DNA of 64,000 nt from Potamilus streckersoni (taxonomy: Eukaryota), in the NCBI GenBank assembly GCA_016746295.1, contig JAEAOA010001935.1, positions 2,866,024 to 2,930,023 of the forward strand. Direction: 5' to 3'. Below are positions 5,591-61,479 of the stretch, one piece after another. Numbering within the stretch: position 1 is the first letter of the stretch; each line of letters opens with the position of its first letter. The position numbers and the translations under genes were made by a program. The notes beneath the pieces are model-generated. The model ran no database searches and was not told the origin of the DNA. It saw only the letters and a list, made by a program, of their open reading frames with translations.

Positions 5591-5885
5591 TCCACATCTC
5601 ATCCCTTTTGATTGCTGTACTTTTTGTTAAAGAGCTTATGGAGAAACTTTATTAAATGGATGTTGGAAGTCTTTTTAGCTTGCATTGATTGATTAAAAAA
5701 AACATGTGACACATTTACACTATTGATCTCCATAAGAGCTGACATTTTATGATAAATCTCATTTATACAGATTCAACAGATGCAAAAGTACTCACTGTGT
5801 TTGCGTGCAAACATTTTCATGCCTCTGTCACAATTATATAGAGTTTATATTGTGTTACTAGTGTCCTGATGTCCTGTTATCATGT
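5590..5885 (+). mobile_element. Copy 2 of the roughly 300-bp dispersed element, inserted inside the AAATATAACACT satellite
   Basis: Homologous to 195-495. Satellite units of the same family lie directly on both sides (5428-5590 and 5890-6215). Confidence 0.75.
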
Positions 5886-5889
5886 CACA

Positions 5890-6215: not shown

Positions 6216-6611
6216 TTTTTAGCAGGAAACTCCGGCTCAAGCATTAAGTTTCAAAATTATAACATTCTGTAATCTTAATTGGAATAAATTTAGGATCTTG
6301 AACCTTACAGATTTTCTTGATTTCTCTTCATGCAAACCAATTTTCATTTATATATTGATGCTATATTTGGGAATATTTTGGAATCTGAGTTTCTTGATCT
6401 AAATGTTTTGAGATTAGCAGGCCTGTAATGAGCACAAACTAATATATTCACAGACAACATTGATAAGATTTCTCTACTGGAATTTTAAATATACAGTGAT
6501 TACCTTAAGCTGGTGTCTGAAGTTCTTGGCATGCTTTTTCTTATTTTCTCACATCCAGGCTATAGAAACCAATGCCTGTCAAAAATAGGGCTCCAAGTGG
6601 ACAACTTGCCT

Positions 6612-7200
6612 AAGTCCTGTACAGATCACTGACATCTCACTTCTGCATGGGTTTGAGTCTCAGTAAGGCATGAACAGATCATTACCATCTCACTTCTGCA
6701 TGGGTTTGAATCTCAGTAAGGCATGTACAAATCACTGACATCTCACTTCTGCATGGGTTTGAATCTCAGTAAGGCCTGAACAAATCACTGACATCTCACT
6801 TCTGCTTGGGTTTGAGAATCAGTAAGGCCAGAACAAATCACTGACATCTCATTTCTGCATGGGTTTGAGTCTCAGTACGGCCTATACAGATCACTGCCAT
6901 CTCACTTCTGCATGGGTTTGAGTCTCAGTAAGGCCTGAACAAATCACTGACATCTCACTTCTGCATGGATTTGAGTCTCAGTAAGGCCAGAACAAATCAC
7001 TGACATCTCACTTCTGCATGGGTTTGAGTCTCAGTAAGGCATGTACAGATCACTGACATCTCACTTCTGCATGGGTTTGAGTCTCAGTAAAGCATGTACA
7101 GATCACTGATATCTCACTTCTGCATGGGTTTGAGTCTCAGTAAGGCATGTACAGATCACAGACATCTCACTCTTGCATGGGTTTGAGTCTCAGGCTCGGC
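6612..7200. repeat. 61-bp satellite (..ACAGATCACTGACATCTCACTTCTGCATGGGTTTGAGTCTCAGTAAGGCATGT..), about 10 copies; the monomer is homologous to the 5' head of the adjacent SINE-like module
   Basis: Head-to-tail repeats. The last monomer runs directly into the module at 7185. The monomer motif GGGTTTGAGTCTCAG matches GTGAGTTCAAGTCTCAGG and GTGAGTTCGAGTCC in the other two module copies. Confidence 0.85.
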
Positions 7201-7340
7201 CAGTTTGGGTATGTGAGAAAGCTTGCCAGTGGCTTCCCGTGATTCACTGGCTCTTCTTGAGTTCTTTCTCCATCAGATGTACCACTATGCATAGATAATC
7301 ATGTACTGAAAAATGACATTAAACCCAAAACAAAAGACCT
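7185..7340 (+). mobile_element. SINE-like module copy 1 (GGGTTTGAGTCTCAGGCTCGGCCAGTTTGGGTATGTGAGAAAGCTTGCCAGTGGCTTCC...TACTGAAAAATGACATTAAACCCAAAACAAAAG); its 5' head is replaced or amplified as the 61-bp satellite
   Basis: Alignable, at about 65-70% identity, to 15655-15850 and 61535-61745, and to nowhere else. Tandem arrays of different families lie immediately upstream of all three copies. Confidence 0.65.
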
Positions 7341-7850
7341 GTAAAAAACTAATGAAATTCCAATTTCATTGGTTGAATCATTCTATCTGATACAGATGTG
7401 TCATTGATGACAGGTCTAAATGATCTGCAGAAGATCCAAATGACATTTATTAAGTACTTCTTGTTTTACTGGTATCATTTAAAGTTCAGTTTTATTTTTT
7501 TAAACTGAAATGTCATTCACTTGATGAAAATCACTCGGATAAATCCCATCAGAAAAACAAGAAGTTTCCATGATGTAAAACATACAATTTATATTCAGCA
7601 AAAGGTTCATGGGCAGACAATTTGTACAACACCACCACCCATGTGACCTAGACCTATTCATGCCTTAAGATAAATCAAAACACCCTCTTTTTAGAATGTT
7701 TTAAGGTTGTGAGTATAAAACAGAGATTACTAGATAAAAATAGATTATATAAAAAGAGGGTTCTTTTAAAAATATTTTGGAGCTTTTATATTTCTTATTT
7801 CATTGGGTGATTTCCCCCAAAACATTCTGTGATTTCCCCCAAAACTGATA

Positions 7851-8712: not shown

Positions 8713-11017
8713 AACTGGTCATGATATGGTTTGTCAAAATCAGAAAGGGAAATAAGTTTGTCCTGTCATACCTCACAAAATAATACCAAATAAAAAATGC
8801 AGAAGTAAATTTCCAGTTGTTATGAACTTACCAAACAAATTATTATCTGACACTAGATGAAAAAGGAATATTATTTAGTAATTAATTAATAATCATTTAA
8901 ACTGGATTGTACCTTTGTTGTTACATTAGCTAGCATAATTATGTAATTTAAGAGGATACACCTGTCATGGAAAATTTTGTTTTGTGGGTTCAACACCATT
9001 TTTCAGTAGATGAAAGGCTATACATTGCAGCCAGTATATTTGGTAGAAGACAAACCTGGGAAAACTCACAAACCAATGGAAAGTTACTGGCAAGCTTTGT
9101 TACATACCAGCATTTGTCAAGCCGAGACTCTAACCCACACAGACAAAGATGATAAGTCAGTGATCTGTCGGGGAGACAACTCATCCACCTGAGGCCACAC
9201 TGTCATTAGAGAAAACTCAAAGTATGACAAAATTTGCCCATTGTGTGCACTGTTATCTTGTACATATAGATTCAATAGTCAAGTGAAATGAAGAAAGGTT
9301 TGTACATGTTATGAGCAGGTTTTCATTGCTGTCTCAAGGTTGCATAAGAAAATTAGAAAATAACATACAATAACATCATTTTTATCTCTTTTTTTTGTCA
9401 CATTTAATGACACCAGAACACAAAAGTGTCTATATTGTGCCAACAAATATTAATTGTAATTTAAAAATAATTATATATTTAAAAGTATTTATACCCTTTG
9501 CATTACTTGTCCATAATTTGTAATCAATTACAATTACTGATTACCTTTTTTGCAGGAATTGATTACAATTACAATTTTTTATTTCAATTACTTAATTGAT
9601 TACTTTAATTCATTACTGTACTACACTGTAAAGGGCAAACCAAGCAGCCAAAGCTACCCAGCAGTCACCCATTTCTGAATAGAAGATTCCATATACTGAC
9701 CTCAAATATTGTGTGAATTAACATGTTTTTCATATTGACAAAATATGTAGAATGGAAATTCCATAAACAGGCATAAAAACATCCAACATTGTTCTGTGCA
9801 AAATGTGAATTAACCAATGAGAACTGTGAGCTGTGACAGACTGAACAGAAGTAATGTAAATGTACTCAAATTATGTGGATATAAAAGTACATGTAATTAA
9901 TTACTTCAGTGTGAAAGAGTAATTGTAATCAACTACAACAAGTAATTTTAATTTTAATTCATTGCCCTTACAACAGTAAAATACAACACTGGCCTTTGCA
10001 TTACCCATTATTCAGGGGGACTGTAGAGCAGCTTTGACTGCTTCATTTTAATTCTAAATAAATGGTTTTTTACAAGTGGAGAAAAGAATGGATGAACATG
10101 ACTTTAAAAATAATAAACATTACAATTGATGTATTAGATAAGTCATAATGGTAAATAAGACATGAATATTTTCTTTAAGAAGGATGCTTGTAGTTGAAAG
10201 AGCTGATATAGGACAGATTTTAATGTATTATATAGAATCAACTACTATGGCAGTTTTAATCTGACATCTGATGCCTTCTTGTCAGTCTGTAATCTCTCAC
10301 ACACACAAACACACAGTTACATGCACACACACAAACACAGCCTGTGAAGGAATCTACACATGTAGACATGGTCTGCATGTGGATACTGTTGACTTTAAAT
10401 GAGGTAAACACAGTTTGGAATGTAACTTTTGTCAGGTAGATGGCATACAGGTATGTTACAACTCCCGCTACTTTGGCTAAATGCCACTGTGAAGGCTAAG
10501 GGTCTCCACCGTCTTTTCAATCCCAGTTAAATGTGCTATCAAAATAGACACTGTCAATATTTCCCCCAAAGTCCTATTGGAGTAACAGGTAGTCAGCCAA
10601 TAAATGGTGTGTACTGCCATTCAGTATTGCCTCCAAAGACTGAATCAGTTATTAGTAACTGTTTCTCACAGAGTGGCAAGTTGGATTTAGTTCTTTTTAT
10701 GATTTTGTTCTAGTTTATGTGGATAAATTCAGGACATCTAAGAGTCATTCAATAAGGTATGAATATTGATTGATTATTGACTATTGGTTAAGGTTCAATT
10801 TAACAGGTGAAGTTGATAATTACTATCATAGCGTGTTGTCAAAATATTTCCTGACAACACTACATTGGCTTTTGGATGCAATATTGTCATTCCTAGGCAT
10901 AAAATGTGATGATACAGCAGTTTACTGTAGTATGCATTTTCAGAATAAACATGAAGCTAGCAATTCATTCATTGACATACAGTCTACATTTAAAGTCAAA
11001 ATCAAGTGATCACCTTA

Positions 11018-11300: not shown

Positions 11301-11737
11301 TTTTCATTTTTAACATTTTCGACTCAAGGGGCATATAAAATGTACTTAAAGAAAAGCACCTCAGAATTTTCATTTGCTTGTACATAAGCAGTGAGTCAGT
11401 TTTTGAAAATTAGTTAGTAAGTTAGTACTTTGTTAACAATCCTTTAGTCTTTCAGTCCTTTAGATTCATAACCATATACCACAGTGTTAAACGCAGTGTT
11501 AGTCAATGCATGTAGACAAACCCATCTTTTAAAGTATCCTTTGTGACCAGCAGAAACTATCTATAATAAACAGCAATCAATATATTCCAGTACTGTCATG
11601 TGACCCACAGAAACTGGAAAGAATATTCTGGTACTATCATGTGACCAGCCCAATCTGGCCAGTATAAAGTAGCCAGCATGTGTTCTGGTACTGCAAGCTG
11701 AATTCTGAAAACTAATCTGATTTTATTTATTTTTCAT

Positions 11738-11885
11738 GTACCATAATGAATTTCAGTCAAGTCCCACTGCACAGACCCAGATCTTATATATATTTTGTTT
11801 GGAGTAGAACATGCAATCAGGTGCATGTAGCGAAGGCTGATCAAGGTCTGTGTTATCTGTGTTTAACTTGATTATATTCAAGAGG
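11738..11885. mobile_element. Degenerate fragment of the palindromic MITE-like family
   Basis: Contains ..GTCCCACTGCACAGACCCAGATCT.. and ..GATCAAGGTCTGTG..TTAACTTGATTATA.., but is much more diverged than the other copies. Confidence 0.35.
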
Positions 11886-12520: not shown

Positions 12521-12548
12521 CTGTTTATTTGTATTTTATGCCAACACA

Positions 12549-12770
12549 TATTGTCTGTACTTGCCTACAGGTTGAGTCCAACTGCAAACAACATAGGCTC
12601 ACATAAAGTGCTGGCAGGTTAGGGTCTATAATGTTTGTTCTATTGATTATCTTGACAAACTGCATAGATTCAGATCTGCCAGCTCATTATGCAATGGCAG
12701 GTTTGTGCATGTGCAGATTGCTGTTGGATTTCAAATAACTGAGTACATACCATATTATCCAAAGGAACAA
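12549..12770. mobile_element. Palindromic MITE-like element copy (..CAGGTTGAGTCCAACTGCAAACAACATAGGCTC...CAGATCTGCCAGC...GGATTTCAAATAACTGAGTACATACCATAT)
   Basis: The left terminus is nearly identical to the family consensus GTTGAGTCCAACTGCAAACAACATAG. The internal part shows palindromic symmetry. Confidence 0.7.
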
Positions 12771-13334
12771 TCTCATAATTGATATCTATTGTACACAGCT
12801 ATCTTTTATTGCAATGTATTTATTACATTTTAAAATGGCATTATTCACAATCCTTGCATTATCTTATGAATATAAAAGACAATATTATTTTAGGTAGATA
12901 TGGTAGAAATACTAAAATTAAAACTTGTCAGGTCCCAAGCCAGAGCATATTTTCAATTTTATTCCAAATAATGTATGAACAGCTGTTGCTCCTTGTACTG
13001 ATTTTGGATAATATATATTCAACATTAGAATGTTATTAAGAATAAATGTTTTCAAGTTGTCTATTTATGCACTCTGTAAATTCATGAACAGCTACAGTAG
13101 GTGTCAATGTATGTACTGATTGCATGCATTGTAAGCTTGTAATTGGTCTTGTGTAAGAGTAATCAATAATCTTATTTAAATTATTGTTTTAAATGGTTGG
13201 TGATAAAAGCTGAATAGAGCTTGTGTTTTGTTTTGCCCATAATAAGGCAGAGCATATATTTGTTCTCCATGCAGGCATCCAGATGTCCCTTGGCTTGTTA
13301 CCAGTGGTTTCTGCACAATAACTTTTGTTGTCCA

Positions 13335-13984: not shown

Positions 13985-15660
13985 TAAAATAAATGGATCC
14001 ATACATTACACTTAGTACTACTATCACACAATATCAAGGGATCTATACAGTCCACTAATTATTACTATCAGATAATATCAAGTGATCTCTACATTACACT
14101 TAGTATTACTATCAGATAATATTAAGTGATCCATACATTATACTTAGTATTACTATCAAATAATATTGAGTGATTCATACATTATATTTAGTATTATTAT
14201 CAGATAATATTGAGTGATCTCTACATTACACTTAGTATTACTATCAGATAATATTGAGTGATCTGTACATTAAACTTAGTATTACTATCACATAATATCA
14301 GGTGATCTGTACATTACACTTAGTATTACTATCACATAATATTGAGTGATCTCTACATTACACTTAGTATTACTATCAGATAATATTGAGTGATCTCTAC
14401 ATTACACTTAGTATTACTATCAGATAATATTGAGTGATCTCTACATTATACTTAGTATTACTATCAGATAATATTGAGTGATCTCTACATTACACTTAGT
14501 ATTGCTATCAGATAATATTGAGTGATCTCTACATTATACTTAGTATTACTATCAGATAATATTGAGTGATCTCTATATTATACTTAGTATTACTATCAGA
14601 TAATATTGAGTGATCTCTACATTATACTTAGTATTAATATCAGATAATATCAAGGGATCTATACATTACACTTAGTATTACTATCAGATAATATTGAGTG
14701 ATCTCTACATTATACTTAGTATTACTATCAGATAATATTGAGTGATCTCTATATTATACTTAGTATTACTATCAGATAATATTGAGTGATCTCTACATTA
14801 TACTTAGTATTACTATCAGATAATATTGAGTGATCTCTACATTATACTTAGTATTACTATCAGATAATATTGAGTGATCTCTACATTACACTTAGTATTA
14901 CTATCAGATAATATTAAGTGATCTCTACATTATACTTAGTATTACTATCACATAATATTGAGTGATCTCTACATTACACTTAGTATTACTATCACATAAT
15001 ATTGAGTGATCTCTACATTACACTTAGTATTACTATCACATAATATTGAGTGATCTCTACATTATACTTAGTATTACTATCAGATAATATCAAGTGATCC
15101 ATACATTATACTTAGTATTACTATCAGATAATATTGAGTGATCTCTACATTACAATTAGTATTATTATCACATAATATTGAGTGATCTCTACATTACACT
15201 TAGTATTACTATCACATAATATCAGATGATCTCTACATTACACTTAGTATTACTATCACATAATATCAGGTGATCAGTACATTACACTTAGTATTACTAT
15301 CACATAATATCAGGTGATCTGTACATTACACTTAGTATTACTATCACATAATATCAGGTGATCTGTACATTACACTTAGTATTACTATCACATAATATCA
15401 GGTGATCAGTACATTACACTTAGTATTACTATCACATAATATCAGGTGATCTGTACATTAGACTTAGTATTACTATCACATAATATCAGGTGATCTGTAC
15501 ATTACACTTAGTATTACTATCACATAAGTATCAAGTGATCCATTTATTACACTTGGTATTACTATCACATAAATATAAAGAGATCCATTCATTACCGGTA
15601 CACTTAGTATTACTATCACATAATATCAAAGTGATCCATACATTACTCTTTGTATTTCAC
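13985..15660. repeat. 44-bp satellite, subfamily A (CATTACACTTAGTATTACTATCAGATAATATTGAGTGATCTCTA), about 38 copies, with CACATAATATCAGGTGATCTGTA variants
   Basis: ATTGAGTGAT recurs at a 44-bp period (14341, 14385, ...). The 71-aa ORF at 15490..15705 is an artifact. Confidence 0.95.
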
Positions 15661-15850
15661 CTCTGTGTGAGTTCGAGTCCATGCTTGGCTAACGTGGTTA
15701 AGTGAAAAAGCCTGCCACTGTAGTTTCTCATGGGTTGGCAGTTCTTCCCAGGGTTTTCCAGGGTTCATCCTCCATTACTGATACTGGCCACCATGTATAG
15801 CCTATCTTGTGCTGAAAAATGGCATTAAACCCCATAACAACAACATCAGT
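15640..15850 (+). mobile_element. SINE-like module copy 2 (..CTCTGTGTGAGTTCGAGTCCATGCTTGGCTAACGTGGTTAAGTGAAAAAGCCTGCCACTG...GTGCTGAAAAATGGCATTAAACCCCATAACAACAAC), located between two 44-bp satellite subfamilies
   Basis: Homologous to 7185-7340 and 61535-61745. Contains a tRNA B-box-like GAGTTCGAGTCC at its 5' end. Confidence 0.65.
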
Positions 15851-16475
15851 TTGTATTACAATCACATAATATCAAGTGATCCATTCATTACACTTAGTAT
15901 TGCTATCACAAAATATTTAGTGACTAATTCATTACACTTATTATTAATATTACATGATATAAAGGGATCTATTCATTACACTTAGTATTACTATCACATA
16001 ATATTAAGTGACTAATTCATTACACTTATTATTACTATCACATGATATAAAGGGATCTATTCATTACACTTAGTATTACTATCACATGATATCAAGTGAT
16101 CAATGCATTATCCTTAGTATTACTATCACATATTAAAAAAGGGATCCATCCATTATACTTAGTATTCCTATCATGTGATATAAAGGGATCCATCCATTAT
16201 ACTTAGTATTCCTATCATGTGATATAAAGGGATCCATCCATTATACTTAGTATTCCTATCGTGTGATATAAAGGGATCCATCCATTATATTTACTATTCC
16301 TATCATGTGATATAAAGGGATCCATCTATTATACTTAATATTCCTATCATGTGATATAAAGGGATCCATCCATTATACTTAGTATTCCTATCATGTGATA
16401 TAAAGGGATCCATCCATTATACTTAGTATTCCTATCATGTGATATAAAGGGATCCATCCATTATACTTAGAATCA
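15845..16475. repeat. 44-bp satellite, subfamily B (CATTATACTTAGTATTCCTATCATGTGATATAAAGGGATCCATC), about 14 copies
   Basis: GGGATCCATC recurs at a 44-bp period (16141, 16185). Shares the core CATTAYACTTAGTATTMCTATCA with the 13985-15660 array. Confidence 0.9.
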
Positions 16476-18394: not shown

Positions 18395-19255
18395 TTGCTC
18401 ATCTCATAATGCACCAGCAGATTTTGGTCTTTATCTTTTTGTACTTATGGTTTCAAATACAGATCCTGATCTGCCAGGAAATAATACACCAGTAGTTCTG
18501 GATCAAAGCTCTTCACTGTACTACTAATTTCAATGACAGACCTTGATCATATAAAGCACTAGCAGATTTGGGTCTATGTTCATTGTACTTTTTATTCAAA
18601 CACAGATCCAGCTGTCATATAATACACCAGCAGATCTGGGTCAAAGATCTTCACTGGACTACTGGTTTCAAGCACAGACCCAGATCTCTCATCATATGAT
18701 ACACAAGCAGATCTGGGTCAGGGCTTTTAATTGTATTATTGATTTAAAGCACAGACCCAAATCTGTCACACAAGCAGATCTGGGTCCGGGCTTTTAATTG
18801 TATTATTGATTTAAAGCACAGACCCAAATCTGTCACACAAGCAGATCTGGTCCAGCCTGTTATTGATTTAAATTGATCATGTCAAATTGATCATATTGAT
18901 TTAAAGCACAGACCCAGATCTGTCATATGATACACAAACAGATCTGGGTCCAGGCTGTTAATTGTATTATTGATTTCAAGCACAGAGCCAAATCTGTCAT
19001 ATGATAAACAAGCAGATCTATGCCCAGGCAGTTTATTGTATTATTGATTTAAAGCACAGACCCAGATCTGTCACACAAGCAGATCTGGGTCCAGGCTGTT
19101 AATTGTATTATTGATTTCAAGCACAGAGCCAAATCTGTCATATGATACACAAGCAGATCTGTGCCCAGGCTGTTTATTGTATTATTGATTTAAAGCACAG
19201 ACCCAGATCTGTCACACAAGCAGATCTGGGTCCAGGTTGTTAATTGTAATGTTGA
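18395..19255. repeat. MITE-derived satellite: about 12 tandem monomers of 67-74 bp (ACAGACCCAGATCTGTCACACAAGCAGATCTGGGTCCAGGCTGTTAATTGTATTATTGATTTAAAGC), with a 151-bp dimeric higher-order unit toward the right end
   Basis: The monomer is the palindromic core (GACCCAGATCTG...CAGCAGATCTGGGTC) of the MITE-like family. GGGCTTTTAATTG recurs at 67 bp (18721, 18788), and AAAGCACAGACCCAGATCTG recurs at 151 bp (19041, 19192). Confidence 0.9.
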
Positions 19256-19321
19256 TTTCACAAACTCAATACATGTATGCTATGGCAGCTCTTAGTCTTT
19301 CTTATTCATTGATGGGTACAT

Positions 19322-19402: not shown

Positions 19403-19545
19403 TATCATTAACAGTTTTGTTTCTAGCCTGGTTACAGGAGAGTTCTTTACCCTGTACTCCCTAGGTGGTGTCCTGCCTTCTCTGTGCTGCATCATGCGTG
19501 TCTTGGAGGCTGCCATGTCTTAAATCTCAGAATGTTTAATACTGT

Positions 19546-19768
19546 ATATACTCACTTTTTAAAGTTGAGTCAAACTGCAAACAACAAAGATCCTGATCTC
19601 CCATAGCATCATATGACTATAGATCCAGGTCTATGTTGTTTGTTCTACAGATTAGTCCTAACAAACAACACAGACACAGACAGACCAGCCAGTGCATTAT
19701 GCACCAGATGATCAAGGTCTGTGCAGTTTGCAGTTGGACTGAACTTATAAGCGAGCATATATGGCACA
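19546..19768. mobile_element. Full-length palindromic MITE-like element copy (TATATACTCACTTTTTAAAGTTGAGTCAAACTGCAAACAAC...GGTCTGTGCAGTTTGCAGTTGGACTGAACTTATAAGCGAGCATATATGG)
   Basis: The best-preserved copy: both termini are mutual reverse complements, and it consists of two palindromic halves of about 100 bp each. Confidence 0.8.
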
Positions 19769-19894
19769 TAAAAAAATGTAATATTCAACATGTGCATTTT
19801 GTGCATTCAACTTATCAACCTCTGCTTTGTCACATACTGTACATCTAATACTGTATAACAAATACTCATATACTGAGGTTGATGTCTTCAATAG

Positions 19895-24055: not shown

Positions 24056-25139
24056 AACCTTGTCTTCTTTTGTAGAAATCAAACTGTTGGAAAGATAAAA
24101 CACGAAAAAAATCACTTCCTTCTGTAATTTAATATATTTAACTTTCAAAGGAGAAAAATAGTTGAGTACTCAATGTCTTTTTGAAAGAGTGGAAAATATT
24201 TCTGTTGACATGATTGAATATAATTAATTTATTTGCAAGTAAACATGTCACATATAAATGTCAAACTTAATCCAAACAGTGTCTAAATTATAACATAAGA
24301 TTTTTTTCCCCTCCCTTACCTGCAAGACAACTTTATCCCTATTTAATTGTATAGAGCCTCTTCAATTACTTTTGTGGTAGATAACATTGACCAAGATCTC
24401 CTTGAATTAAATATTTATGTTTTGTTGATGGCCTTGTGAAAGATAACATGGCTAAACAAGCAAAATAAAGGAGATTTCTTTTTCTGTCTTTTCTTATAAG
24501 TTTAAATTTGCTAGGCCATAAAGAATTTGCAAAACTCTTGTCATATCTTGATAGCTAGTAGCAATAAAGGATGGGTGTACCATTGAGCATGGTTCTATTC
24601 TCAGAGAATATAATACAACTGTATATTCCATAACCTGTTCTACCACAAAGCTAATATGGAATTCTTTATATGCCCCACTTTTTCTCCAACCCATTCAGTT
24701 TTGTGTTTAAGTCATGCAGTTTTCAACCTCTGTGGGTGGGCTTTCATGTTCAATTGATATATCTCTAATTTCTTTTCTTACCTTTATATATTTTCTTAGC
24801 CTTACAGCATAATTTTTGATGGGTGGGGTGGAGTTGGGGTGATGCCCAAACTACATTTGTTGGTCATGGAAGATTATTACACTTTGTTCCAAAAAATGAG
24901 GAAAATGTAAATGTACCTGGAGTTTGATTATTATTTATTAGCACCTCAGTAAGCTTTTTCTGGCCACACATTTTTCATATAATAGTAGAATTCTGAGTGA
25001 CACTGTTCATAAAAAATTAAATGTAAGTTCATTTTAAGTCTTCAACAATTTTGTGAACATTCAACTGTTCAGACCTTACACTTTATATTTTGTAAATTGT
25101 CCCACTAATTTAGAAATTCATTGATTGGCAAACTGCTCC

Positions 25140-25400
25140 AGTGGCCTAATACATTAAAACAATGCCTCAGATGATCATAGTTTCAAACCCTGGCTGAGCA
25201 TGGTGTATAAAAATGGTACTAGCAGCTGCCTTGCTTTGTGCTCAGCATTAAGAGGTTAGTGTTAGGACTGGTCAGCCTGGTGTCAGGATAATGTAACTGA
25301 ATGGGTCCTTACACAGGATATTGTGACCTGGGTGGGACATCACATGTCTTCAGTATGATGCCCCAGTGCTAGACATGACTATACATTGCCACAGCTGATG
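25140..25400 (+). mobile_element. tRNA-derived SINE (family A), copy 2; head degraded, 3' tail absent
   Basis: The body ..AAAATGGTACTAGCAGCTGCCTTGCTTTGTGCTCAGCATTAAGAGGTTAGTGTTAGGACTGGTCAGCCTGGTGTCAGGATAATGT..GGGACATCACATG..CCCCAGTGCTAGACATGACTATACATTGCCACAG is homologous to 40150-40476 and to the minus-strand copies. Confidence 0.65.
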
Positions 25401-25840
25401 CCTTATGAAATGGCAGATCAAGGACTTTGTTGCTTCCCTTTGGATTCAACTGGTAAGCAATTTTATATGACATCTATAAAATCTGAAAAGACCCATTAGC
25501 CTGTGAAATGGCACTTTTCATGGTTGAGCTGTACAGAATTTTTCAAATGAGCTGATATGATTGAATAAATATGCATGGATTTGTTTAAGTGGATATCAGA
25601 TTTACCCATTTTAACATTTGTATTGCTCCAATCAAGTAACAAAATGCAAGTTCTTGTCACTTTTCACATCGATCATGCACATAAGTATAGGCAGTTTCCA
25701 TCTCAGGTTGTAATTTAATGTGGTTCTCCTCACTGTATAAAAATGAGAATACATTGTCAAAACTAATAACACTATCATAATTAATGTTGTAGATCTGCTA
25801 ATTACCATATACATAATTATTATACATCAGTATCTCATGA

Positions 25841-31615: not shown

Positions 31616-31967
31616 CATTACATGTACTATGTTCTATCAGCACTCATCCAAAATGCATGGAACTTTGTGCATGCAGACAAGGCAATAGATAAGTCATAAC
31701 ACATAGACTCTGGTTCAAATCTTAGTAGAGGAAGAATTAAACATTCTCAAACCTGCATGTAAATGTTCTTTATCCATTTTTGTTATTTTATTATTAGGGA
31801 TTGTAATGTATATAAAGTGAGCTCTACTGTAGACTATATAGACATAAATTAGCCAATGCAGGGTAATATATAATGTAATGGTTCCATCTGTAATTTCAAA
31901 CAAGCAGTATAGATCATGACCTCCATGTACTTTATGTGATGGTAGGTAGTCTAGGTCTATGCAAACT

Positions 31968-39968: not shown

Positions 39969-40149
39969 AAAAAGACACTTTTACTACCTACCTGTTTTAG
40001 TTAATTCTGTTTAACTTTTAATATAACTTCTGAGCAAATTAATTAAATATATAAAATTTAGGAATTAAACTCACATTAGTATCATATTTTTACAATTTCA
40101 TAAAAAAATGTTGACAAATCTAAAACTGATGAATAAGGAGGAAATTAAG

Positions 40150-40446
40150 CTCTTCTATTGACCTAAGTAGTTAGAGTGTCCACCTTGGATGCAGGAGGTA
40201 ACAAGTTCGAACCCCAGCCAAATCATAAGACTTACAAAAATGGTATGAGCAGCTGCCTTGCTAGGTGCTCAACATTAAGAGGTTAGTACAAGGATTGGTC
40301 AGTCTGGTGTCAGGATAATGTGACTTGGTGGGACATCATGCTGCATACCTGTGGCATGATTTCCCAGTGCTAGACATCACTATTAACTGCCACACTGCAG
40401 ACATCATAGCAAAATGAATTGTTAAAGCTACTTTTAGAATCCATAT

Positions 40447-40476
<30 letters not shown>
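40150..40476 (+). mobile_element. tRNA-derived SINE (family A), full-length reference copy with a (CA)15 tail
   Basis: The 5' head, GACCTAAGTAGTTAGAGTGTCCACCTTGGATGCAGGAGGTAACAAGTTCGAACCCCAGCC, has an A-box-like AGTAGTTAGAG motif and a B-box-like GTTCGAACCCC motif. The body is homologous to the other four copies. It ends ..CAGACATCATAGCAAAATGAATTGTTAAAGCTACTTTTAGAATCCATAT(CA)n at 40446-40475. Confidence 0.75.
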
Positions 40477-40477
<1 letters not shown>

Positions 40478-40527
40478 TTCTAGACAGGTCACTCATAAAT
40501 GAAAAATTTGCTTTTCTTTCACGTTTT

Positions 40528-40748
40528 ACCATATATGCTTGCTTATAAGAGTCCTCCTGCAGCAAGCAGCTCAGACCCAGATCTGCCATTGCATAATGCT
40601 CCAGCAGATCTGAGTCTGGCAGTTTGTTAAGAATAATCAGTAAAACAAACAATATATACCCTGATCTGCAGGCATATTAAGTCATGGCAGATCAGGATCT
40701 TTATTATTTACAGTTTTATGTGACTTATAAGTGAGTATATGTGGGACC
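40528..40748. mobile_element. Full-length palindromic MITE-like element copy (CCATATATGCTTGCTTATAAGAGTCC..CAGACCCAGATCTGCCATTGCATAATGCTCCAGCAGATCTGAG...GTGACTTATAAGTGAGTATATGTGGG), about 50 bp downstream of the SINE tail
   Basis: The termini CCATATATGC..CTTATAAG and CTTATAAGTGAGTATATGTGG are reverse complements. Internal paired CAGATCTG motifs. Confidence 0.8.
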
Positions 40749-43700
40749 CATAAAGGCTTAATAGCAATTGAAGATGATAAAAGCAATCATTTTATAAAGC
40801 ACTTAGGATTTTGTCCTGAAATCCAATTATTTGACTGGGTAACAGACAGACAGTAAGGTAAAGGTAAAATATCCTGCAGTGTTCATCAATCAATTTTAAA
40901 TTACAATAACCTGTGTGCCATATGTTTTATGTTTATACACAAGCTTATATCTTTGTAATTCATTATCAACCCATTTTCAGATAACTTCCAAGTATTTTTG
41001 ACAAGGAGGTTCATTTTAATCATACCAACTTATACATTTTTGTTGTTAGATTGTTATGAACATCCATTTAATTTTGAAACATGAACATAAAAGCCAATTT
41101 AGACATTCATAGATTTGCTTTACTATTAAAGTTTGATTTTCAAATGCAAAGCAATCTTTATTCAAGTTTAAACTCAGCTGGAAATATCATTCATCTATTG
41201 AATGTCTAATTCACCCAATTTATTTTCTTGAATTGAAGTCATATTTCATGGCACATAAACTTGTAGACTGATGCCTGATATTTTTTGCAAATTATTTTTC
41301 TGTTGTGTTATAAAATTGGAACACATGAACTAAATTATGTCAATAGTTTTGGGATCATTGGATACACACAAGGTCATGAAGGTCATAACTACAGTTCACT
41401 TGGCTCCAATACTGATGTACTAGAGTGTTCCAATACAGAGATAAGAGCCCTATTAGTTTCTGGAGAGAGTCAATATTTACAAAGTGCTATGGCCTTAGTT
41501 ATCAATGGCTGAAACATTCAGGATGAGTTTACTATTGGAAGACTTGGTTACTGTTTGTTGGACTATTAAATTTGTTCACCTTTGATCTTAGCCAGTAAAT
41601 CTGGGAGCTAACTTGTTGAAAGCTGTAAATTATTAGCACTTTCAGGAATGTATTATGTATGTTCAGTCTGTTCAACTGTCAGTTTTAAACATGAATTGGA
41701 AATAATTTTACAGTTTCCACACAAACTGAATGAGAGAAAAAAGACAAACAGGTTTGCTCAGAGGAATTAGATATTTCACTCTTGGTACTTGTAATAATGA
41801 TTTGATTAAACACATCTTTTATTTACACATTAAAACAACATGTACCCTCCTCACCCAATGTACATGTTTAATTGCTGGCATGTATTTTCAGGCCCAGCCA
41901 CATCCCTAATACACTAAGACAATTGTCACTTTGGATTTAAATAACCAATAATAAAAAGTTGTAAACTTTTTACTATCCCCTCATTAAAAAAATTGTTATG
42001 GGATACACTGTATAGTAAATATATTTTATGTTGTTTATATATTTATTATGTCTTCATTACACTCTCATTATCTTGGACCATTTTTACACATACACTCATG
42101 AAATTATGTTTATTCATTTTGAGGTAACTGCCAAAATTAGGTTGCTGTGATTTAATGTTTATGCTTGAGCTATTATTTCATTATACCTTTAATATTTTGA
42201 ATCATATTATATCTATACTGCATCTATGAAAGAGAAACTGATAATACTAAAACTGGGTCACTGTGACCTAATTATCTGCTTTAGTGATTTATGTATTTTC
42301 AGCTATTTTTTTATTATGCCTTTACTTTTTGGATGATATTACATCTAAGCTCATCAAGCCTTTTCAGTGGACATAGCTTTTGTGGAGTTACTCCACCAAA
42401 GTAATGTGACCTGATTCTCTATCAAGAGTGATTTGTATATATTCTGTATACTCCATAATACAAAAAAGATATGTTACTTTGACTTAATTGACAGGCTTGA
42501 GTATCATTTGTATTTTCAGCAGTTAATTTATTACACATCTGTAACTGTTATATTTTTATTCATTATACTTTGTATGTGGACACATATCCAGGAAGTTCCT
42601 GGACTCGGAACCAATGGGTTACAAATTTGAAAACTGTCCATACCAGCTTGGTTCTCTAACCAAAATGCCCCACTCCCATTACCTCTGAATAAGTTATCTA
42701 TACCAGCCTGTATATTGTTGACTACTTCCTGTTGGGGAGGGATTGTATTTATGAGTAAACAACTTGTTTCTTGTTTTATTTTTGATTTTGGTTCTCTATC
42801 TGATACAATGATCTTGCTGTCAGACCTATTTTGGGGTAGTTTCAAAATTATCACCCTTTTAAAAGAAACTGAATTTTAGTGGAGTATTTTTTTAAAAATT
42901 CTACCCAAATATAAATAGGAAACAGGAGTGATAATTAAAATCAAGATTCTGATTAACAATTAAAATCTCACTTTCAGCACTGTATCATTTTTAATGCTTT
43001 CCAGTTTTATTGTTTTATTATCCATGACAGTTATAATTTATTGTGAAGTAATTTTTATGCTTGTTCCATTAATTTAAGACAGGCATTTCTTGAGTTTAAT
43101 ACTGGTGTACATTATATTCAAATAGGTATGAAAAGAGAGCAGATGTAGGTTGTTTTCTTCTTCTGAAAATAGTTATGTTACTCCCCTCCTTCCCAAAGAT
43201 CAAGTTATTAGTGTCTAAATGTAGTTTGTGGAATGACTAATTTGATTTCTAATCACTTAAAAATGTACATATTATGGCTTCTGGTATGTCTCTTTACAAA
43301 AAAATTGCATTTAATACCTACAACTGATTCACAAAAAGGGCAAAAAAAAATAAAAAATCAAAATTGGGAGGCATTCTGGGTTTATTTGCATGTAAATGCT
43401 TCCCACCATGCCCATAAATAGTCTTACCAAGTTACAATGAAGTGTAAATTATATAAAAAATCATGGTCTTTATTTACATATGCAAGATTGGGTACCAGTA
43501 TGGTACTGTATGGTACAATACAGAACACATGTGAATGATGTTTTGCAAGATCTATGATGTAATTTAGTAGTGCAAGGGAATTTAAAATCACTGACTGGGG
43601 AAAATGTTTGATTTATGATGCACTAGTTATCAAAATGAATGGACTGTTTGTGAAAAAATAAATATTGTATTCATTACTTATTCCATTTTGACCTTATAAT

Positions 43701-44974
43701 AAAAAATGGGTGTTTACCTTATAATTTTTCAGGTTTTGAATTATTACATGCCTCAAGGCAAATTAGTTCCATTGTGCAATTAATTGTCATCCACATTAAA
43801 TAAAATAATTGTAATTTCTTCTTCTTATTATTATTATAATTATTATTATTAATATAATTATTATTATGAGTAGCATGTACTTTTTAAGTGCACTGTATTT
43901 GGTACAAAACTTCTCTATTTTTTATTACATTGTTTACTGTATAATGTCATGAATGAAAGAATACCTGATTCATAGTTACATGTCTTTCATGTCAGTAAAA
44001 TAAAAAAGACTTGTTATTTTGTGTATCGGAATGCCTGTTGTAAATTCAAAAAAAAGGGTTTCTATTATGTACTGTGATTTCACAATTATTGTTAATTGGG
44101 TTTTCATTGATTTATTGGATGATAAAACCACAAACTAAAAATTCCAGTGATCAGTTATCTTTTTTTTAAATTTCCCATTCAATGAAATTAAGTGTATAAG
44201 ATGTAATATTTTATAAAACAAAAACAAATATTAATTTGCACTAAATCATTACTTCTACAGTGCATTTTTTTTAGCAGATGATACATGTTACAGACTTGCT
44301 TTAAGAGTTTTATTAAAGTTTTTCATATATGAAAACCCTCCCCTGTAGCTTCTTGGTGGTATATTGTAAAGCATTTAGACAGGATTAAGTGTCTATGGTG
44401 ATTTACAAGGCACCCATGAACTGCAGGATATTGAACTATTCAGTGCTAGATTTCATTTTAATGTTCAGATTCTGGTGTGATCAAAGGTACTCAATAGTCA
44501 CCAAGTTAGTAGTCTTCAATTGTTTGCCAACTCCTTACAAAGTAAAAAGTCAATAACATCTAGTACATGGGTAAACCTATACATAGGAGTATCATAGTAG
44601 GTAAACTATTTAACACCTTTCTGCTATCATCTGGTCACTTTTATGATGATAAAGGGTTCTTCGGTGCCATCCCCCTCCTGATCAGTGGATGAAAGATAAC
44701 AAAGATGACTCTTTTGATGTTACATTATTTTTAGTCTGGATTTAATTGGTAGCACAGGTAAGGTAGGTCTCTGATTGCAAATTTGCCTTAGTATGTAGAT
44801 AATATGAGAAAACATGCATGCATTCTTTTAAAACAAAAAGTAGCATAAGGTGACAAACAGTCAGTTTCTGCAGCTTTTGCAGTATTGCAGAAAATTTTTG
44901 TTTGCAGCTCTTGGATAGGGTACTTTACATACTGTATATAATGTCTGTGATAATGTCTTGGATAGGGTAATTTA

Positions 44975-45172
44975 CTTACTTTATACACTTCCAAGTTGAT
45001 CCATCTGCAAACAACATAGACATTGATCTGTCATTGCATAATGTGACAGCAGATCGGGTCGTGTTCTACTGATTACTCCTTACCTACTGCACATTATCCA
45101 ATGACAGATCAGGGTCTGTGTTCTACTGATTACTCCTCACCTACTGCACATTATGCAGTGTCAGATCTGTGT
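44975..45172. mobile_element. Palindromic MITE-like element copy (left terminus ..TTTATACACTTCCAAGTTGATCCATCTGCAAACAACATAGAC..), with a 40-bp internal duplication (GTGTTCTACTGATTACTCCTYACCTACTGCACATTAT x2); the right terminus is replaced by the 60-bp satellite
   Basis: Its left half matches the family consensus. After ..CAGTGTCAGATCTGTGTCAGGATGG the sequence continues directly as the first monomer of the 45160-46165 array. Confidence 0.7.
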
Positions 45173-46344: not shown

Positions 46345-47110
46345 CAAATTATCCAGATGCATAGTGTGTGATAATATCCAGATGCATAGTGTATAATAAT
46401 ATCCAGATACATATTGTGTGTGATAATGTCAAGATAGATAATGTGTGACAATATCCAGATGCGTAATGTGTGATAAAATCCAGATGCATAGTGTGTAATA
46501 ATATCCAGATACATATTGTGTGTGATAATGTCCAGATAGATAATATGTGACAATATCCAGATGCATAGTGTGTGATAATATCCAGATGCATATTGTGTGA
46601 TAATGTCCAGATATATATTGTGTGTGATAATGTCCAGATAGATAATGTATGATAATATCCAGATGCATAGTGTTTGATAATATCCAGATGCATTGTGTGT
46701 GATAATATCCAGATACATAGTATGTGTGATAATGTCCAGATACATAGTGTGTGATAATGTCCAGATACATAGTGTGTGTGATAATATCCAGATACATTGT
46801 GTGTGATATAATCTCAAGATAATATCATGTGTGTGATAATGTCCAGATAGATAATGAGTGATAATATCTAGATGCATAGTGTGTGATAATATCCAGATGC
46901 ATTGTGTGTGATAATATCCTGATGCATTGTGTGTGTGATAATGTCCAGATACATAGTGTGTGATAATATCCAGATGCATAGTATGTGATAATATCCAGAT
47001 GCATTGTGTGTGATAATATCCAGATGCATTGTGTGTGTGATAATGTCCAGATACATATTGTGTGTGATAATGTTCAGATAGATAAATGTGTGATAATATC
47101 TAGATGCATG
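46345..47110. repeat. 25-27-bp satellite (ATCCAGATGCATAGTGTGTGATAAT, with ATCCAGATACATATTGTGTGTGATAATGTC and AGATAGATAATGTGTGACAAT variants), about 30 copies
   Basis: ATCCAGATGC recurs at 46351 and 46376 (25 bp). The minus-strand ORFs of 220, 122 and 114 aa are artifacts. Confidence 0.9.
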
Positions 47111-48069
47111 GTGTATGATATATATCCTGTTATGACCCTGTAGTTAAAATTACATTTGTGTTAAAATTTGAATTCTTTTTTTTAATTTTTTCCTTTTTAT
47201 TTCATTTTTATATCATTAAATATAATTATTAATATGATGATTATTATGTTGGCAGGGTCGGATAAAAGCTTGTTAGAAGCATCATACATGTATTTATTTA
47301 AAACATAAATGTGACTCATGTAAGCACGATTTTTGTGTGACTGTTTTGTCATATTAAGTTTACAGTCAGAAATAAATATGTAAATGATTGAGTGTGACAG
47401 GTCATTGCTAATAATATTTGTTGACATTCTATACTAGGTTGCTGATATTTCAAAATCTTCATGATTTCTTCATGCGTGTGCATGGGATGATGTATTATTT
47501 TGCTTTAAATGCTTATGTACTTGCAAAATAGTCAGTCATAGTTGAGAGTCATTTTTTAACATTTTAGAGAGTCAATTTATAACATCTTACAGAGTTTCTA
47601 ATACCTTAAGAAAAGGTATTCCTGTGCTAGAAAGAGTTGTTGTTTGTATGTATGAAGAATTACATGTGTTTTGTTATTAAGGATCATAATTGTACTTAAT
47701 ATACCTTCTAAAAAATAATTAAATTCCTTGGAGAACTACACAACTGGCTTTACAACTGGCTTTAGACAAAGACATTTGCTGAAATTATTTCTAAATTGTT
47801 ACAGAACAATACAAATCGTGATTCACAATGAAAATTTGGACATTTGTGTTAACCTTTGTCTGACATCATCATCCACCATCTTGGAATGGGACTGAGATTC
47901 ATACGACATCAATTTAGAACTGTTTAGTCACAGGACTTATGTGTTTTCACAATTTTAGGACCAAATTTGGATCTTCTTCATAAATTGTAAGTCTTGTTTC
48001 ATATTTTTACCTCTTCAGCTTACAAAGCTTGTTGTCTCCGCACTATTCCTTATATTACTTTAAATGAGC

Positions 48070-48640
48070 CAATAATTAACAATCCAGATACATATAGTAT
48101 ATGATAATATCCAGATACATAGTGTATGATAATGTCCAGATACCTATAGTATAAAATAATATCCAGATACATATAGTGTATGATAATATCTAGATAGATG
48201 ATGTGTGGTAATATCTGGATACATATTGTGTGTGATAATATCCAGATAGATAATGTGTGGTAATATCTGGATACATATGATGTGATAAAATCCAGGTACA
48301 GATGATGTGTGATAATATCCAGATACATATAGTGTATGATAATATTCCAATACATATAGTGTAAAATAACATCCAGATACTTTTAGTCTATGATAATATC
48401 TAGATACATATAGTGTATGATAACATCCAGATACATATAGTGTGTGATAATATTCCAATACATATAGTGTATGATAACATCCAAATACATATGGTGTTTG
48501 ATAATATCCAGATACATATAGTCTGTGATAAAATACATATACATATAGTTTATCATAATATCCAGAGACATATAGAGTGTGATAATATTTCAATACATAT
48601 TGTGTGTGATGATATCCAGATACATATTGTACTGGAGATA
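48070..48640. repeat. Second array of the ATCCAGATACATATAGTGTATGATAAT satellite family (25-27 bp), about 21 copies, more diverged
   Basis: Same core motif, ATCCAGATACATA..GTGT.TGATAAT, as 46345-47110. The two arrays are separated by about 1 kb of AT-rich unique sequence. Confidence 0.9.
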
Positions 48641-51904: not shown

Positions 51905-53880
51905 AAATATGATTAAGTTGCAGTCAATGGAGTCATGTAGTGAGACTGCCTTATTGTGAAGTACACCATACAATCAATACTCCTTAATTATGTTGCAGTC
52001 AAAGGAGTCATGTAGTGAGACTGCCTTATAATGAAGTACACCATACAATCAATACTCTTTAATTATGTTGCAGTCAATGGAGTCATGTAGTGAGACTGCC
52101 TTATTGTGAAGTACACCATACAATCAATACTCCCTAATTATGTTGCAGTCAAAGGAGTCATGTAGTGAGACTGCCTTATCATGAAGTACACCATACAATC
52201 AATACTCCTTAATTATGTTGCAGTCAATGGAGTCATGTAGTGAGACTGCCTTATTGTGAAGTATACCATACAATCAATACTCCTTAATTATATTGCAGAC
52301 AAAGGAATCATGTAGTAAGACTGCAGCATGATGAAGTACACCATAGATACAATACTAAATTTGTTATATTTGGGAGCCATGGAGTATACTTCATTATGAT
52401 GAGATTGCTTTTTAATGAAGTTTACTTATATACAATATTTCATCATTATAGTACTGTAAAAGGGAGTCCTAGAGTATACCGGCTTATAATCAAATAGACT
52501 ATACATACAGTACTCCCTGATTATATTACTGTAAAAGGGAGTCATAGATTTTACTGGCTTATAATGAAATAGACTATACATACAGTACTCCCTGATTATA
52601 TTACTGTAAAAGGGAGTCATAGATTATACTGGCTTATAATGAAATAGACTATACATACAGTACTCCTTAATTATACTACTGTAAAAGGGAGTCATAGAGT
52701 ATACTGGCTTATAATGAAATAGACTATACATACGGTACTCCCTAATTGTACTACTGTAAAAGGGAGTCCTAGTGTATACTGGCTTATAATGAAGTCCACT
52801 ATACATACAGTACTCCCTGATTATACTACTGTAAAAGGGAGTCCTAGAGTATACTGGCTTATAATAAAGTACACTATACATACAGTACTCTCTGATTATA
52901 TTACTAAGAAGGGGAACCATTGAGTATACTGCACTTTAGTGAGACTGCCTTCTTATGAAGTAAACTATACATATAATACTCACTCATTATCATGCTACTG
53001 TATATATGAAAACCATTAATTATATTTGCCTTATACTAAGACTGCCTTAAAATGAAGTACAGTATGTATATAATGCTTCCTGTTTACATTGCTGTCCCAA
53101 AGTGTCATTGAGTTTGCCACTCTATAATGAAGTACAATATGCATATACATGTACTATGCCCTCATTTTAATACTGTACATGAGAGCCTTCTAGTTTGCCA
53201 CTGTAAAATGAAGTACAGCATTTGCATATAATGTTTTCTCATTATAATGCCAACCCCTTTAGTTTGCTAATCTACATTGAAGTACAATATGCATATAATA
53301 TTCCCTCATTATAATGCTGTCCATTGGAGCCTTTTAATATGGCACTGTAAAATGAAGTACAGTATGCATGTAATATTCCTTCATTATAATGCTGTGCATG
53401 AGAAACCCTTTAGTTTGCTAATCTACATTGAAGTACATTATGCATATAATATTCCCTCATTATAATGCTGTGCATTGGAGCCTTTTAATATGGCACTGTA
53501 AAATGAAGTACAGTATGCATGTAATATTCCTTCATTATAATGCTGTGCATGAGAAACCCTTTAGTTTGCTAATCTACATTGAAGTACATTATGCATATAA
53601 TATTCCCTCATTATAATTCTGTCTATTGGAGCCTTTTAATATGGCACTGTAAAATGAAGTACAGTATGCATGTAATATTCCTTCATTATAATGCTGTGCA
53701 TGAGAACCAGTTAGTATGCTACTCTATAATGAAGTACAATGTGGATAAAATATTCCCTCATTATATTACTGTGCATAAGAGCCTTTTAGTATGTCACTCT
53801 ATAATGAAGTACAATATGCATGTCTACATGTATGTAAGTATGCATGTTGATGACTTGCTAGATAAATATAAAACTTAATG
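51905..53880. repeat. 75-bp satellite family in three diverged blocks: 51905-52300 (GTTGCAGTCAATGGAGTCATGTAGTGAGACTGCCTTATTGTGAAGTACACCATACAATCAATACTCCTTAATTAT), 52430-52920 (..CTGGCTTATAATGAAATAGACTATACATACAGTACTCCCTGATTATATTACTGTAAAAGGGAGTCATAGA..), and 52920-53880 as a 151-bp dimeric higher-order repeat
   Basis: GTTGCAGTC recurs at 51917 and 51992 (75 bp). ATAATGAAAT recurs at 52561 and 52636 (75 bp). Identical ORF starts at 53277, 53428 and 53579 give a 151-bp period. The shared substring AATGAAGTACA..TATGCAT.TAATATTCC.TCATTATAATGCTGT links the blocks. Confidence 0.9.
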
Positions 53881-55528: not shown

Positions 55529-55934
55529 TAGGCAACTGGAGTGGTCCCCATGATAAGGTAGAATAATGTTAGTGAATAAAGAATTGCCTGTGATAGGGAA
55601 GAAGAATGGTAAATTGCATCTTGGTGGATGTTATGTTATGCACATTCATCAGATAGACTGGTTTGTTTTTATTTCAGTAAATAATTAGTTTTTAATTATT
55701 GTGAATCAGTCTTTCAAAGAACTTATGCTCTCAAATTTTTTTTGAGATATTGTCCATGGTACATTTGACCTACAAAAAGACATTACACTATTTAAATAAG
55801 CATGCAAAAGTACTTTATAAGATTTCTTTACCATTGAGCTAGATATTTGTCTTGAGAGCATTCTTAATACAATGATTTGAAATGCAAATATTTGTAGTGC
55901 CTAATGGATTAAACCAGTAATTGAAGATCTATAT

Positions 55935-56158
55935 ACTATATTTACTCATGTATAAGACAAGTCCAGCTGCCAAAACAACATGGACATTGATCTACCATTG
56001 CACTGTGTGCTAATTTATCAGGATCTATGATGTCTGTTCTTCTGATAACTTGTAACAAACTGAATAGACCTTAATCTGCCGGCACATTCATAATACAATA
56101 GCAGATCTGGCTCTGACTAGTTTTCAATTGGACTCGACTTATAAGCAAGTTTAGATGG
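55935..56158. mobile_element. Palindromic MITE-like element copy (TATACTATATTTACTCATGTATAAGACAAGTCCAGCTGCCAAAACAACATGGAC...CAGATCTGGCTCTGACTAGTTTTCAATTGGACTCGACTTATAAGCAAGTTTAGATGG)
   Basis: The termini match the family: CATGTATAAGACAAGTCCAGCTGC and CTTATAAGCAAGT..ATGG. Confidence 0.75.
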
Positions 56159-56564
56159 TTGAAGAAAATTAATTATAAGGCACACATGGTGTTACATGAC
56201 CTCCAATATTTCTTTAAACAGTGTACAATGGACATACACAAGTTTTATACTGTAATTTAAGATTCTGTTTGATAACAGGAGCTGCCAAAGTAGGACCTCC
56301 TTGACTTGTGTGTGCTTGTAAATTGTTGATAACAGCAGATGACTCTTCCCCTCTCTGTGTGATTGGAAATAACAATGGTGTTATTTATGTATTATGCAGG
56401 GTGAAGGCATTTTTCACTGGGTTCTTGACTTTGCACTTTAATGGAACTAATTAACTTGATATAGAAAGGGTTTGGGCTTTATAAACATCAGTCTTCTAAA
56501 AGTTTAGATTTGCATCGTGGTATTTAGTATGGATAATTTTGGAGTCCAAATATATTCTACCTGT

Positions 56565-59864: not shown

Positions 59865-60225
59865 TTCATTATTGCCTCTATAAAGTCCCTCTGAGTCCCA
59901 TGTATAGTCATGATCATTGCCTCTGTAAAGTCCCTTTGAGCCCCATATTGATCATTGCCTGTATAAAGTCCCTCTAAGTCCCATGTATACTCTTGATCAT
60001 TGAATCTGTAAAGTCCCTCTAAGTCCCATGTATACTCTTGATTATTGAATCTGTAAAGTCCCTTTGATTCCCATATTGATCATTGGCTCTATAAAGTCCC
60101 TCTAAGTCCCATGTATACTCTTGATTATTGCCTTTGTAAAGTCCCATTGAGTACCATATTGATCATTGCCTGTATAAAGTCCCTTTAAGTCCCATGTATA
60201 CTCTTGATTATTGCCTATATATACT
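59865..60225. repeat. Roughly 45-bp degenerate tandem repeat (GTAAAGTCCCTCTAAGTCCCATGTATACTCTTGATTATTGAATCT), about 8 copies
   Basis: AAAGTCCCT recurs at about 59963, 60009, 60051 and 60091. The array ends exactly where the MITE copy at 60216 starts. Confidence 0.85.
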
Positions 60226-60414
60226 TGCTTATAAGCTGAGTCCAGCTACAGACAACATAGATCCTGAACTGCCATTGTATAATAGTAGATCATGGTCAAT
60301 TTTTGTTCTACTGATTACTCCTAAGAAACTACATAGACCAGAGTATTATTCAATGGCAGAACTGGATTAGTGCTGTTTCCAGTTGGACTCCACTTACAAG
60401 CAAGTATATATAGT
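60216..60414. mobile_element. Palindromic MITE-like element copy (CTATATATACTTGCTTATAAGCTGAGTCCAGCTACAGACAACATAGATCC...GTTTCCAGTTGGACTCCACTTACAAGCAAGTATATATAG)
   Basis: The termini are reverse complements and the internal structure matches the family. An extra partial terminus, ACTGCTTGCTTATAAATAATG, follows at 60414-60436. Confidence 0.8.
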
Positions 60415-61230: not shown

Positions 61231-61239
61231 TTTGATTGA

Positions 61240-61440: not shown

Positions 61441-61479
61441 TAATAGCACACTAAACCTAACCCTACCAAGCTAAACTTA

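Follow-up and report, generated by a model that had tools for sequence, protein, structure and literature searches.

An internal 53-bp segment of a SINE-like element repeated 11 times in tandem within a single insertion

Tandem repeats derived from SINEs

Satellites derived from SINEs (sSat) have been described in squamates by Vassetzky, Kosushkin & Ryskov in 2023 (PMC10702118). The unit of the snake satellite sSat3, which is derived from the Squam3 SINE, is 67 nt long; it takes in the 3′ portion of the head with box B and some of the body. Units of this satellite are 89% alike, against 64% for copies of the SINE itself, and those at the ends of an array carry on into SINE sequence (PMC10702118). 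In the blood clam Scapharca broughtonii there are tandem-like structures of the form TSD1-(SINE)n-TSD1 (Martelossi et al. 2024, PMC11481361), and the same authors note that their own cut-offs would miss arrays of small fragments (PMC11481361). In the limpet Patella caerulea, the satellite PcH-sat is derived from Nin-SINE (PMC11121367).

The locus considered here lies in a window (i.e., the whole stretch of DNA that was analysed) of 64 kb, and its overall form is that of an sSat. Structurally, an sSat has at least four tandem units homologous to part of a SINE, with one or more terminal units continuing into the SINE; here, there are 11 such units, with the head of a SINE-like element on the left and its body on the right.

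The array, its parent insertion and the other copies of the element

The array occupies positions 6611-7193 on the plus strand and, sliced in register from 6611, divides into exactly 11 units of 53 bp, none of which has an indel, for a total of 583 bp; TRF calls the array at 6621-7193, with a period of 53, 10.8 copies and 91% matches. The consensus unit is TAAGGCCTGTACAGATCACTGACATCTCACTTCTGCATGGGTTTGAGTCTCAG, the box-B-like motif GGTTTGAGTCT is present in every unit, and the junction between one unit and the next is GAGTCTCAG followed by TAAGGC. Pairwise identity among the 11 units, compared in the same register, has a mean of 90% and a range of 83-98%. A derived variant, ACAAATC, is common to the central units 2-4, 6 and 7, the units at the edges have kept the family state ACAGATC, as found in two other copies of the element (c4 and c2, described below), and units 4 and 7 differ from each other at one position. 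The last unit passes without interruption into the body of the element, which starts at 7194 with GCTCGGCCAGTTTGGG. The preliminary description of this DNA had recognised the array, quoted the sequence of its monomer correctly and seen that the last monomer runs unbroken into the adjoining module; its period of 61 bp, however, has to be replaced by one of 53 bp.

The copy of the element that holds the array (copy 1, c1) can be followed on both sides of it. Upstream, the 25 bp at 6586-6610 on the plus strand (TAGGGCTCCAAGTGGACAACTTGCC) align collinearly with the head of c4 and contain a box-A-like motif, GGGCTCCAAGTGG, at 6588-6600, which matches at 9 of 12 positions with one extra base. The similarity of the two heads is modest, as GGCTCCAAGTGGACAACTTGCCT in c1 and GGCCTCAGGTGGATGAGTTGTCT in c4 are identical at 16 of 23 positions, a value reached by 94 of 5000 shuffles (~2%), and similarity to c2 is limited to the heptamer CAAGTGG; despite this, the position of 6586-6610 and the target-site duplication support its assignment as SINE head. 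Downstream, the body and a CAAA-type tail extend over 7194-7337 on the plus strand and are matched to c3, c4 and c2 by blastn and nhmmer (62-68% identity in alignment; nhmmer E = 1.8e-55). The flanks share an 11-bp duplication, CCTGT(C)AAAAA, with one indel and a local score reached by 3 of 1000 shuffles: its 5′ member, CCTGTCAAAAA at 6575-6585 on the plus strand, matches CCTGTAAAAA(A) at 7338-7348, the position of the 3′ member, CCTGTAAAAAA, on the same strand.

This duplication encloses all 752 bp from the head through the array and the body to the tail (6586-7337), and removal of the ten extra units leaves 222 bp, about the size of c4 (228 bp). Therefore, the array lies inside one SINE insertion and is not terminal. 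The repeated unit is an internal segment of the SINE, approximately positions 26-78 of the ~222-bp element; it begins directly behind the box-A region and ends shortly beyond the box-B-like motif. The earlier view that the unit was the terminus of a mobile element is thus not borne out, given that a real 5′ end with GGGCTCCAAGTGG lies upstream of the array and that the target-site duplication brackets the whole. Nor is the array bounded by inverted partial copies, as had been proposed from a likeness in the left flank: the reverse complement of 6480-6584 scores 11 against the module of copy 1, with a null of 10.0 +/- 1.7 and 322 of 1000 shuffles reaching the score, i.e., chance level, and the region is outside the target-site duplication. 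By nhmmer, there is no minus-strand match to the element on the left flank.

Five copies of the element, 95-247 bp in length when c1 is counted at its collapsed 222 bp and 57-69% identical in pairwise comparisons, were found in the 64-kb window by blastn and by an nhmmer profile built from the copies. Three had been listed before; the additional ones are c4 and c5, both on the minus strand. Copy c4 (8969-9196; nhmmer E = 9.5e-68) is full length, carries one 53-bp unit and is flanked by ATGACAG(G)TGT, a duplication of 10-11 bp with a score that 17 of 1000 shuffles attain. Copy c2 (approximately 61484-61730, plus strand; nhmmer E = 2e-66) is near full length and also carries one unit; its boundaries are approximate, and comparison of its flanks with shuffles gave no clear target-site duplication at these ends. 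Copy c5 is a 3′ fragment consisting of the last ~95 nt only (1819-1913; nhmmer E = 8.1e-10, with a blastn match). Copy c3 (15657-15849, plus strand, 193 bp) is 5′-truncated, lacking ~60 nt of the head, and interrupts what is otherwise one array of a 44-bp satellite (14002-15656 and 15853-16470). It has an 8-bp target-site duplication, TTTGTATT, at 15649-15656 and 15850-15857, and deletion of 201 bp (the 193 bp of c3 plus the 8-bp duplication) restores the register of the satellite with no gap. Copy c3 is demonstrably a discrete insertion into a pre-existing, unrelated satellite, which is why it adjoins an array. One of the four head-bearing or head-adjacent copies contains the 53-bp array, and the other three carry a single unit.

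The relationship between the unit and the element is apparent from copies that are independent of the array. The consensus unit has a local score of 25 against c4 (9196..8969, minus strand), where the null from shuffles is 8.5 +/- 1.5 (z ~11), and of 19 against c2 (61484-61730), where the null is 8.6 +/- 1.5 (z ~7); none of 2000 shuffles reaches the score in either case. Against the 5′-truncated c3 the score is 14, which is reached by 6 of 2000 shuffles. The 53-bp stretch is single-copy in c4 and in c2. Since the unit is significant against both of these copies, the homology of monomer and module claimed in the preliminary description stands with the junction copy left out, and the alignment to independent module copies that it had recommended gives the same answer; its proposal that the array was made from the element's own sequence, the box-B-like motif included, is supported by this homology. 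That motif does not open the module, as had been stated, because c4 and c2 reach ~30-45 bp further in the 5′ direction and copy 1 also extends beyond it (6586-6610), and GTGAGTTC, which had been placed at 61543 in c2, starts at 61552.

Judging by its sequence, the ~225-bp interspersed element behaves like a SINE-like retroposon, as had been suggested previously. Its copies are diverged, two of them (c3 and c5) are 5′-truncated with the 3′ end kept, and the target-site duplications vary between 8 and 11 bp (c1, 11; c4, 10-11; c3, 8). The 3′ ends are short repeats of the CAAA/CAA type, a tail type also on record for SINEs of bivalves (PMC4758252). Copies c1, c3 and c4 lack terminal inverted repeats when compared with shuffles; in c2, the corresponding score is above that of most shuffles (21 of 1000 reach it), but the ends of c2 are approximate. 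The element is short, non-coding and multi-copy, with no ORFs or Pfam domains found in it. In the head, box-A-like and box-B-like motifs ~50 nt apart resemble those of a Pol III promoter and are putative motifs of this kind. When compared with GGTTCGANNCC, with the two N positions counted as matches, box B agrees at 10 of 11 positions in c3 and at 9 of 11 in c1 and c4, the latter two having T or A where a tRNA has C56. The best match in a box B scan of c2 (8/11) lay elsewhere, and the aligned AGTTCAAGTCT also has 8/11 by manual count. Box A matches at 9-10 of 12 positions, only when one extra base is allowed.

Several more specific identities were considered and not adopted. For a tRNA identity of the head, Rfam gave no tRNA match for c4 or c2 at E <= 10 or in gathering mode, which is a weak negative because the Rfam tRNA model also missed a second SINE family in the window whose head is visibly tRNA-like; ARAGORN gave no tRNA at default settings and weak cloverleaf models only at the 70% threshold, and a tRNA origin is at most putative. 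Assignment to a superfamily (Deu/V-type) is a lead only, as the head and core of a teleost SINE align to c1 and c3 at z ~6 with inconsistent registers. A hairpin in the body, GCTGGTATGTAACAAAGCTTGCCAGT at 9085-9111 on the minus strand, with equivalents in other copies, has a weak match to mir-7147 (E = 0.43; 17 bits compared with a gathering score of 90), which was judged to be due to chance. There is no LINE in the 64-kb window. The tail motifs of the SINE had 2, 11 and 0 matches in metagenome, prokaryote-genome and viral collections, respectively, all of them confined to the seeded ~25 nt and amounting to chance 20-mers, and a full-text sequence search of the literature found neither element nor unit sequences in print.

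The surrounding window

The window is AT-rich (33% GC), clearly eukaryotic and non-coding: no coding sequence was found in it, and every long ORF is either a tandem repeat in translation or a random frame in AT-rich sequence, none having a Pfam domain. There are 31 minisatellite arrays with a period of at least 20 bp (periods 25-151 bp; lengths up to 2.8 kb), which cover 36% of the window, and all tandem repeats, including microsatellites, amount to 41%. Of these arrays, only that of 53 bp has a dispersed homologue by blastn. A profile search adds one further array, at 18400-19306, with units of 67/74/77 bp, which is homologous to the internal hairpin module (GCACAGACCCAGATCTG...GCAGATCTGGGTC) of a MITE-like family, with z ~20 compared with shuffles; it is a second array in the window that is derived from a mobile element.

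The MITE-like family is palindromic, its consensus of ~213 bp aligning to its own reverse complement over the whole length. Copies are located at 788-971, 1482-1730, 12532-12778, 19517-19793, 40507-40770, 55916-56180, 60200-60437 and 63026-63289, and fragments at 44965-45122, 25393-25483, 31815-31964 and 11733-11881; several of the copies adjoin the ends of tandem arrays. The second SINE family, which is ~330 bp long and unrelated to the first, is found at 40128-40475 and 25129-25419 on the plus strand and at 12347-12023, 26320-25979 and 55566-55242 on the minus strand. It has the tRNA-like head mentioned above (..AGTAGTTAGAGTGTCCACCTTGGATGCAGGAGGTAACAAGTTCGAACCCCAGCC..) and a (CA)n tail, so that several of the window's (CA)n/(GT)n microsatellites are explained as tails of this family. 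A dispersed duplicate of 304 bp, at 191-494 and 5594-5887 (86% identity), is unrelated to the SINE or MITE families.

Some of the arrays are related to one another. A pair of neighbouring arrays with periods of 25 and 27 bp (46350-47127 and 48082-48627) has diverged but related units, and so have three arrays of 75 bp (51912-52356, 52445-52931 and 53048-53823), whose units are mutually related, a pattern that suggests duplication of array blocks with later divergence. A 25-bp array, ATTGCACAGTTAACCTAACCCTACC, at 61239-61468 has a telomere-like core, CCTAACCCTA, and ends ~15 bp before c2. A subtelomeric location was considered and rejected, as there are no TTAGGG repeats anywhere in the window.

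Origin of the array and its place among known systems

The interpretation that we favour, with a probability of roughly 0.78, is that 6586-7337 is one SINE insertion of ~222 bp in which an internal segment of 53 bp was amplified in tandem to 11 units at the DNA level. An initial tandem duplication of this segment would have been followed by stepwise growth, by replication slippage or unequal sister-chromatid exchange, the setting being a chromosomal region that is unusually prone to the formation of minisatellites. The anatomy of the insertion, the homology of the unit, the target-site duplications and the lack of an array in the other copies are observed directly. That the amplification happened in place, after insertion, and by a molecular mechanism of this kind, is what we infer from the structure. 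The units are 90% alike and the SINE copies 57-69% alike; this greater similarity of the units, with derived variants in the centre and the family state at the edges, is as expected for stepwise growth with partial homogenisation in the array. The boundaries of the unit show no microhomology. Slippage driven by hairpins was considered and set aside, as the unit and its dimer, folded as single-stranded DNA, fold no better than shuffles. With neither boundary microhomology nor unusual secondary structure, the sequence therefore favours no particular mechanism for the duplication. Arrays are frequent in the window and a second one is derived from a mobile element; therefore, local tandem amplification of arbitrary sequence is common here, and the 53-bp array can be read as the result of a local amplification process that happened to catch a piece of a SINE. 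Most likely, the array is without function and is an early-stage tandem repeat derived from a SINE.

The same structure could have arisen at the RNA level, if the transcript of a transposing SINE variant already held the array and was inserted as an element of 752 nt. This would agree with a target-site duplication that encloses the whole array-bearing element, with the absence from copy 1 of a T4 terminator (a run of at least four T) that would stop Pol III, and with the existence of SINEs with internal duplications and of dimeric SINEs (PMC10702118). However, the window's other three head-bearing or head-adjacent copies have a single unit each, and the variants, derived in the centre and of the family type at the edges, fit growth within the array, although such growth could have taken place in a master copy too; we regard this origin as quite unlikely. 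Somewhat less unlikely, but still of low probability, is a reading near to that of the preliminary description, namely that the 53-bp unit forms a genome-wide satellite of many loci, of which this locus is one, or is the ancestor, not yet separated from its SINE. In snakes, a unit of nearly identical type (the 3′ part of the head with box B) is present at hundreds to thousands of loci (PMC10702118), and homogenisation has made the units here more alike than the SINE copies are. Yet in 64 kb with five SINE copies and 31 arrays the unit is in tandem only inside copy 1, the array is only 583 bp long, and the 24-mer at the array junction has 0 matches among metagenome contigs, in a collection which may not contain this organism.

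It is barely credible that the element is a carrier of tandem repeats of the DNA-transposon type (a MITE, or a pearl-like or Helentron/HINE-like element of the sort described from bivalves), with the array as its variable core. It is true that all three plus-strand copies adjoin tandem arrays and that the window contains a palindromic MITE-like family in which one internal module has turned into an array. However, since tandem repeats make up 41% of the window, an adjoining array is to be expected by chance; c3 was inserted into a satellite that was already there and is unrelated, and the array beside c2 is unrelated to the element. Terminal inverted repeats are missing from c1, c3 and c4, only c2 with its approximate ends scoring above most shuffles, the target-site duplications are variable in length, and 5′-truncated copies exist. 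Furthermore, the unit is the element's own sequence and not a foreign one, and as three of the four head-bearing or head-adjacent copies are without the array there is no core common to the copies. A more speculative reading is that the 53-bp unit has seeded a SINE-derived satellite of several loci in a genome that is not squamate and is probably invertebrate. The segment amplified is the part of the head with box B in snakes and here alike, and on this reading its choice may not have been random; we consider this improbable. A candidate mechanism for such a choice would be that TFIIIC or Pol III at box B stalls replication forks, which could lead to template switching.

The closest counterpart is snake sSat3. 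Both have a unit smaller than the SINE that includes the 3′ part of the head with the promoter box B, both have terminal units that continue into the SINE, in both the units are ~89-90% alike and the SINE copies ~60-70%, and in both sub-variants alternate among the units. They differ in that the unit here is 53 nt long and lies within the head, whereas that of sSat3 is 67 nt long and extends into the body; in that one locus is known here, from a 64-kb window, compared with hundreds to thousands in snakes; and in that the SINE families are unrelated. Unlike the main form of sSat, the array here has SINE sequence at both ends and a target-site duplication, an arrangement that is a minor variant in the squamate material (PMC10702118). 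In this respect it is like the arrays of Scapharca, in which one pair of target-site duplications encloses the whole, the head is complete in the first unit and the tail in the last, and the units between them are truncated on either side; such a structure is the signature of internal tandem duplication within one insertion. In Scapharca, however, most of the SINE is repeated, in a survey restricted to hits of at least 150 bp; the unit here is 53 bp, below the length and score cut-offs of that survey, by which it would have been missed.

PcH-sat of the limpet is similar in that its tandem monomer is homologous, in a mollusc, to part of a tRNA-type SINE (Nin-SINE), but it is abundant, chromosome-wide and detached from intact SINEs, whereas here a single short array remains within its parent copy. 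Internally duplicated and dimeric SINEs (cited in PMC10702118) likewise have an internal SINE segment duplicated; in those, one or two copies have become fixed in a family that transposes, unlike the 11 found here in one of five copies. The route from SINE to tandem repeat is already established, and this locus is a new instance of it from an unnamed SINE, the array revealing no new mechanism or function. Its value is that of a clean snapshot of the first step from interspersed element to tandem repeat, with the parent, the target-site duplication and the single-unit sister copies together in one window, and it extends the squamate pattern, and that of the whole-SINE tandems of the clam, to a small sub-SINE unit of the kind that published surveys of bivalves would filter out.
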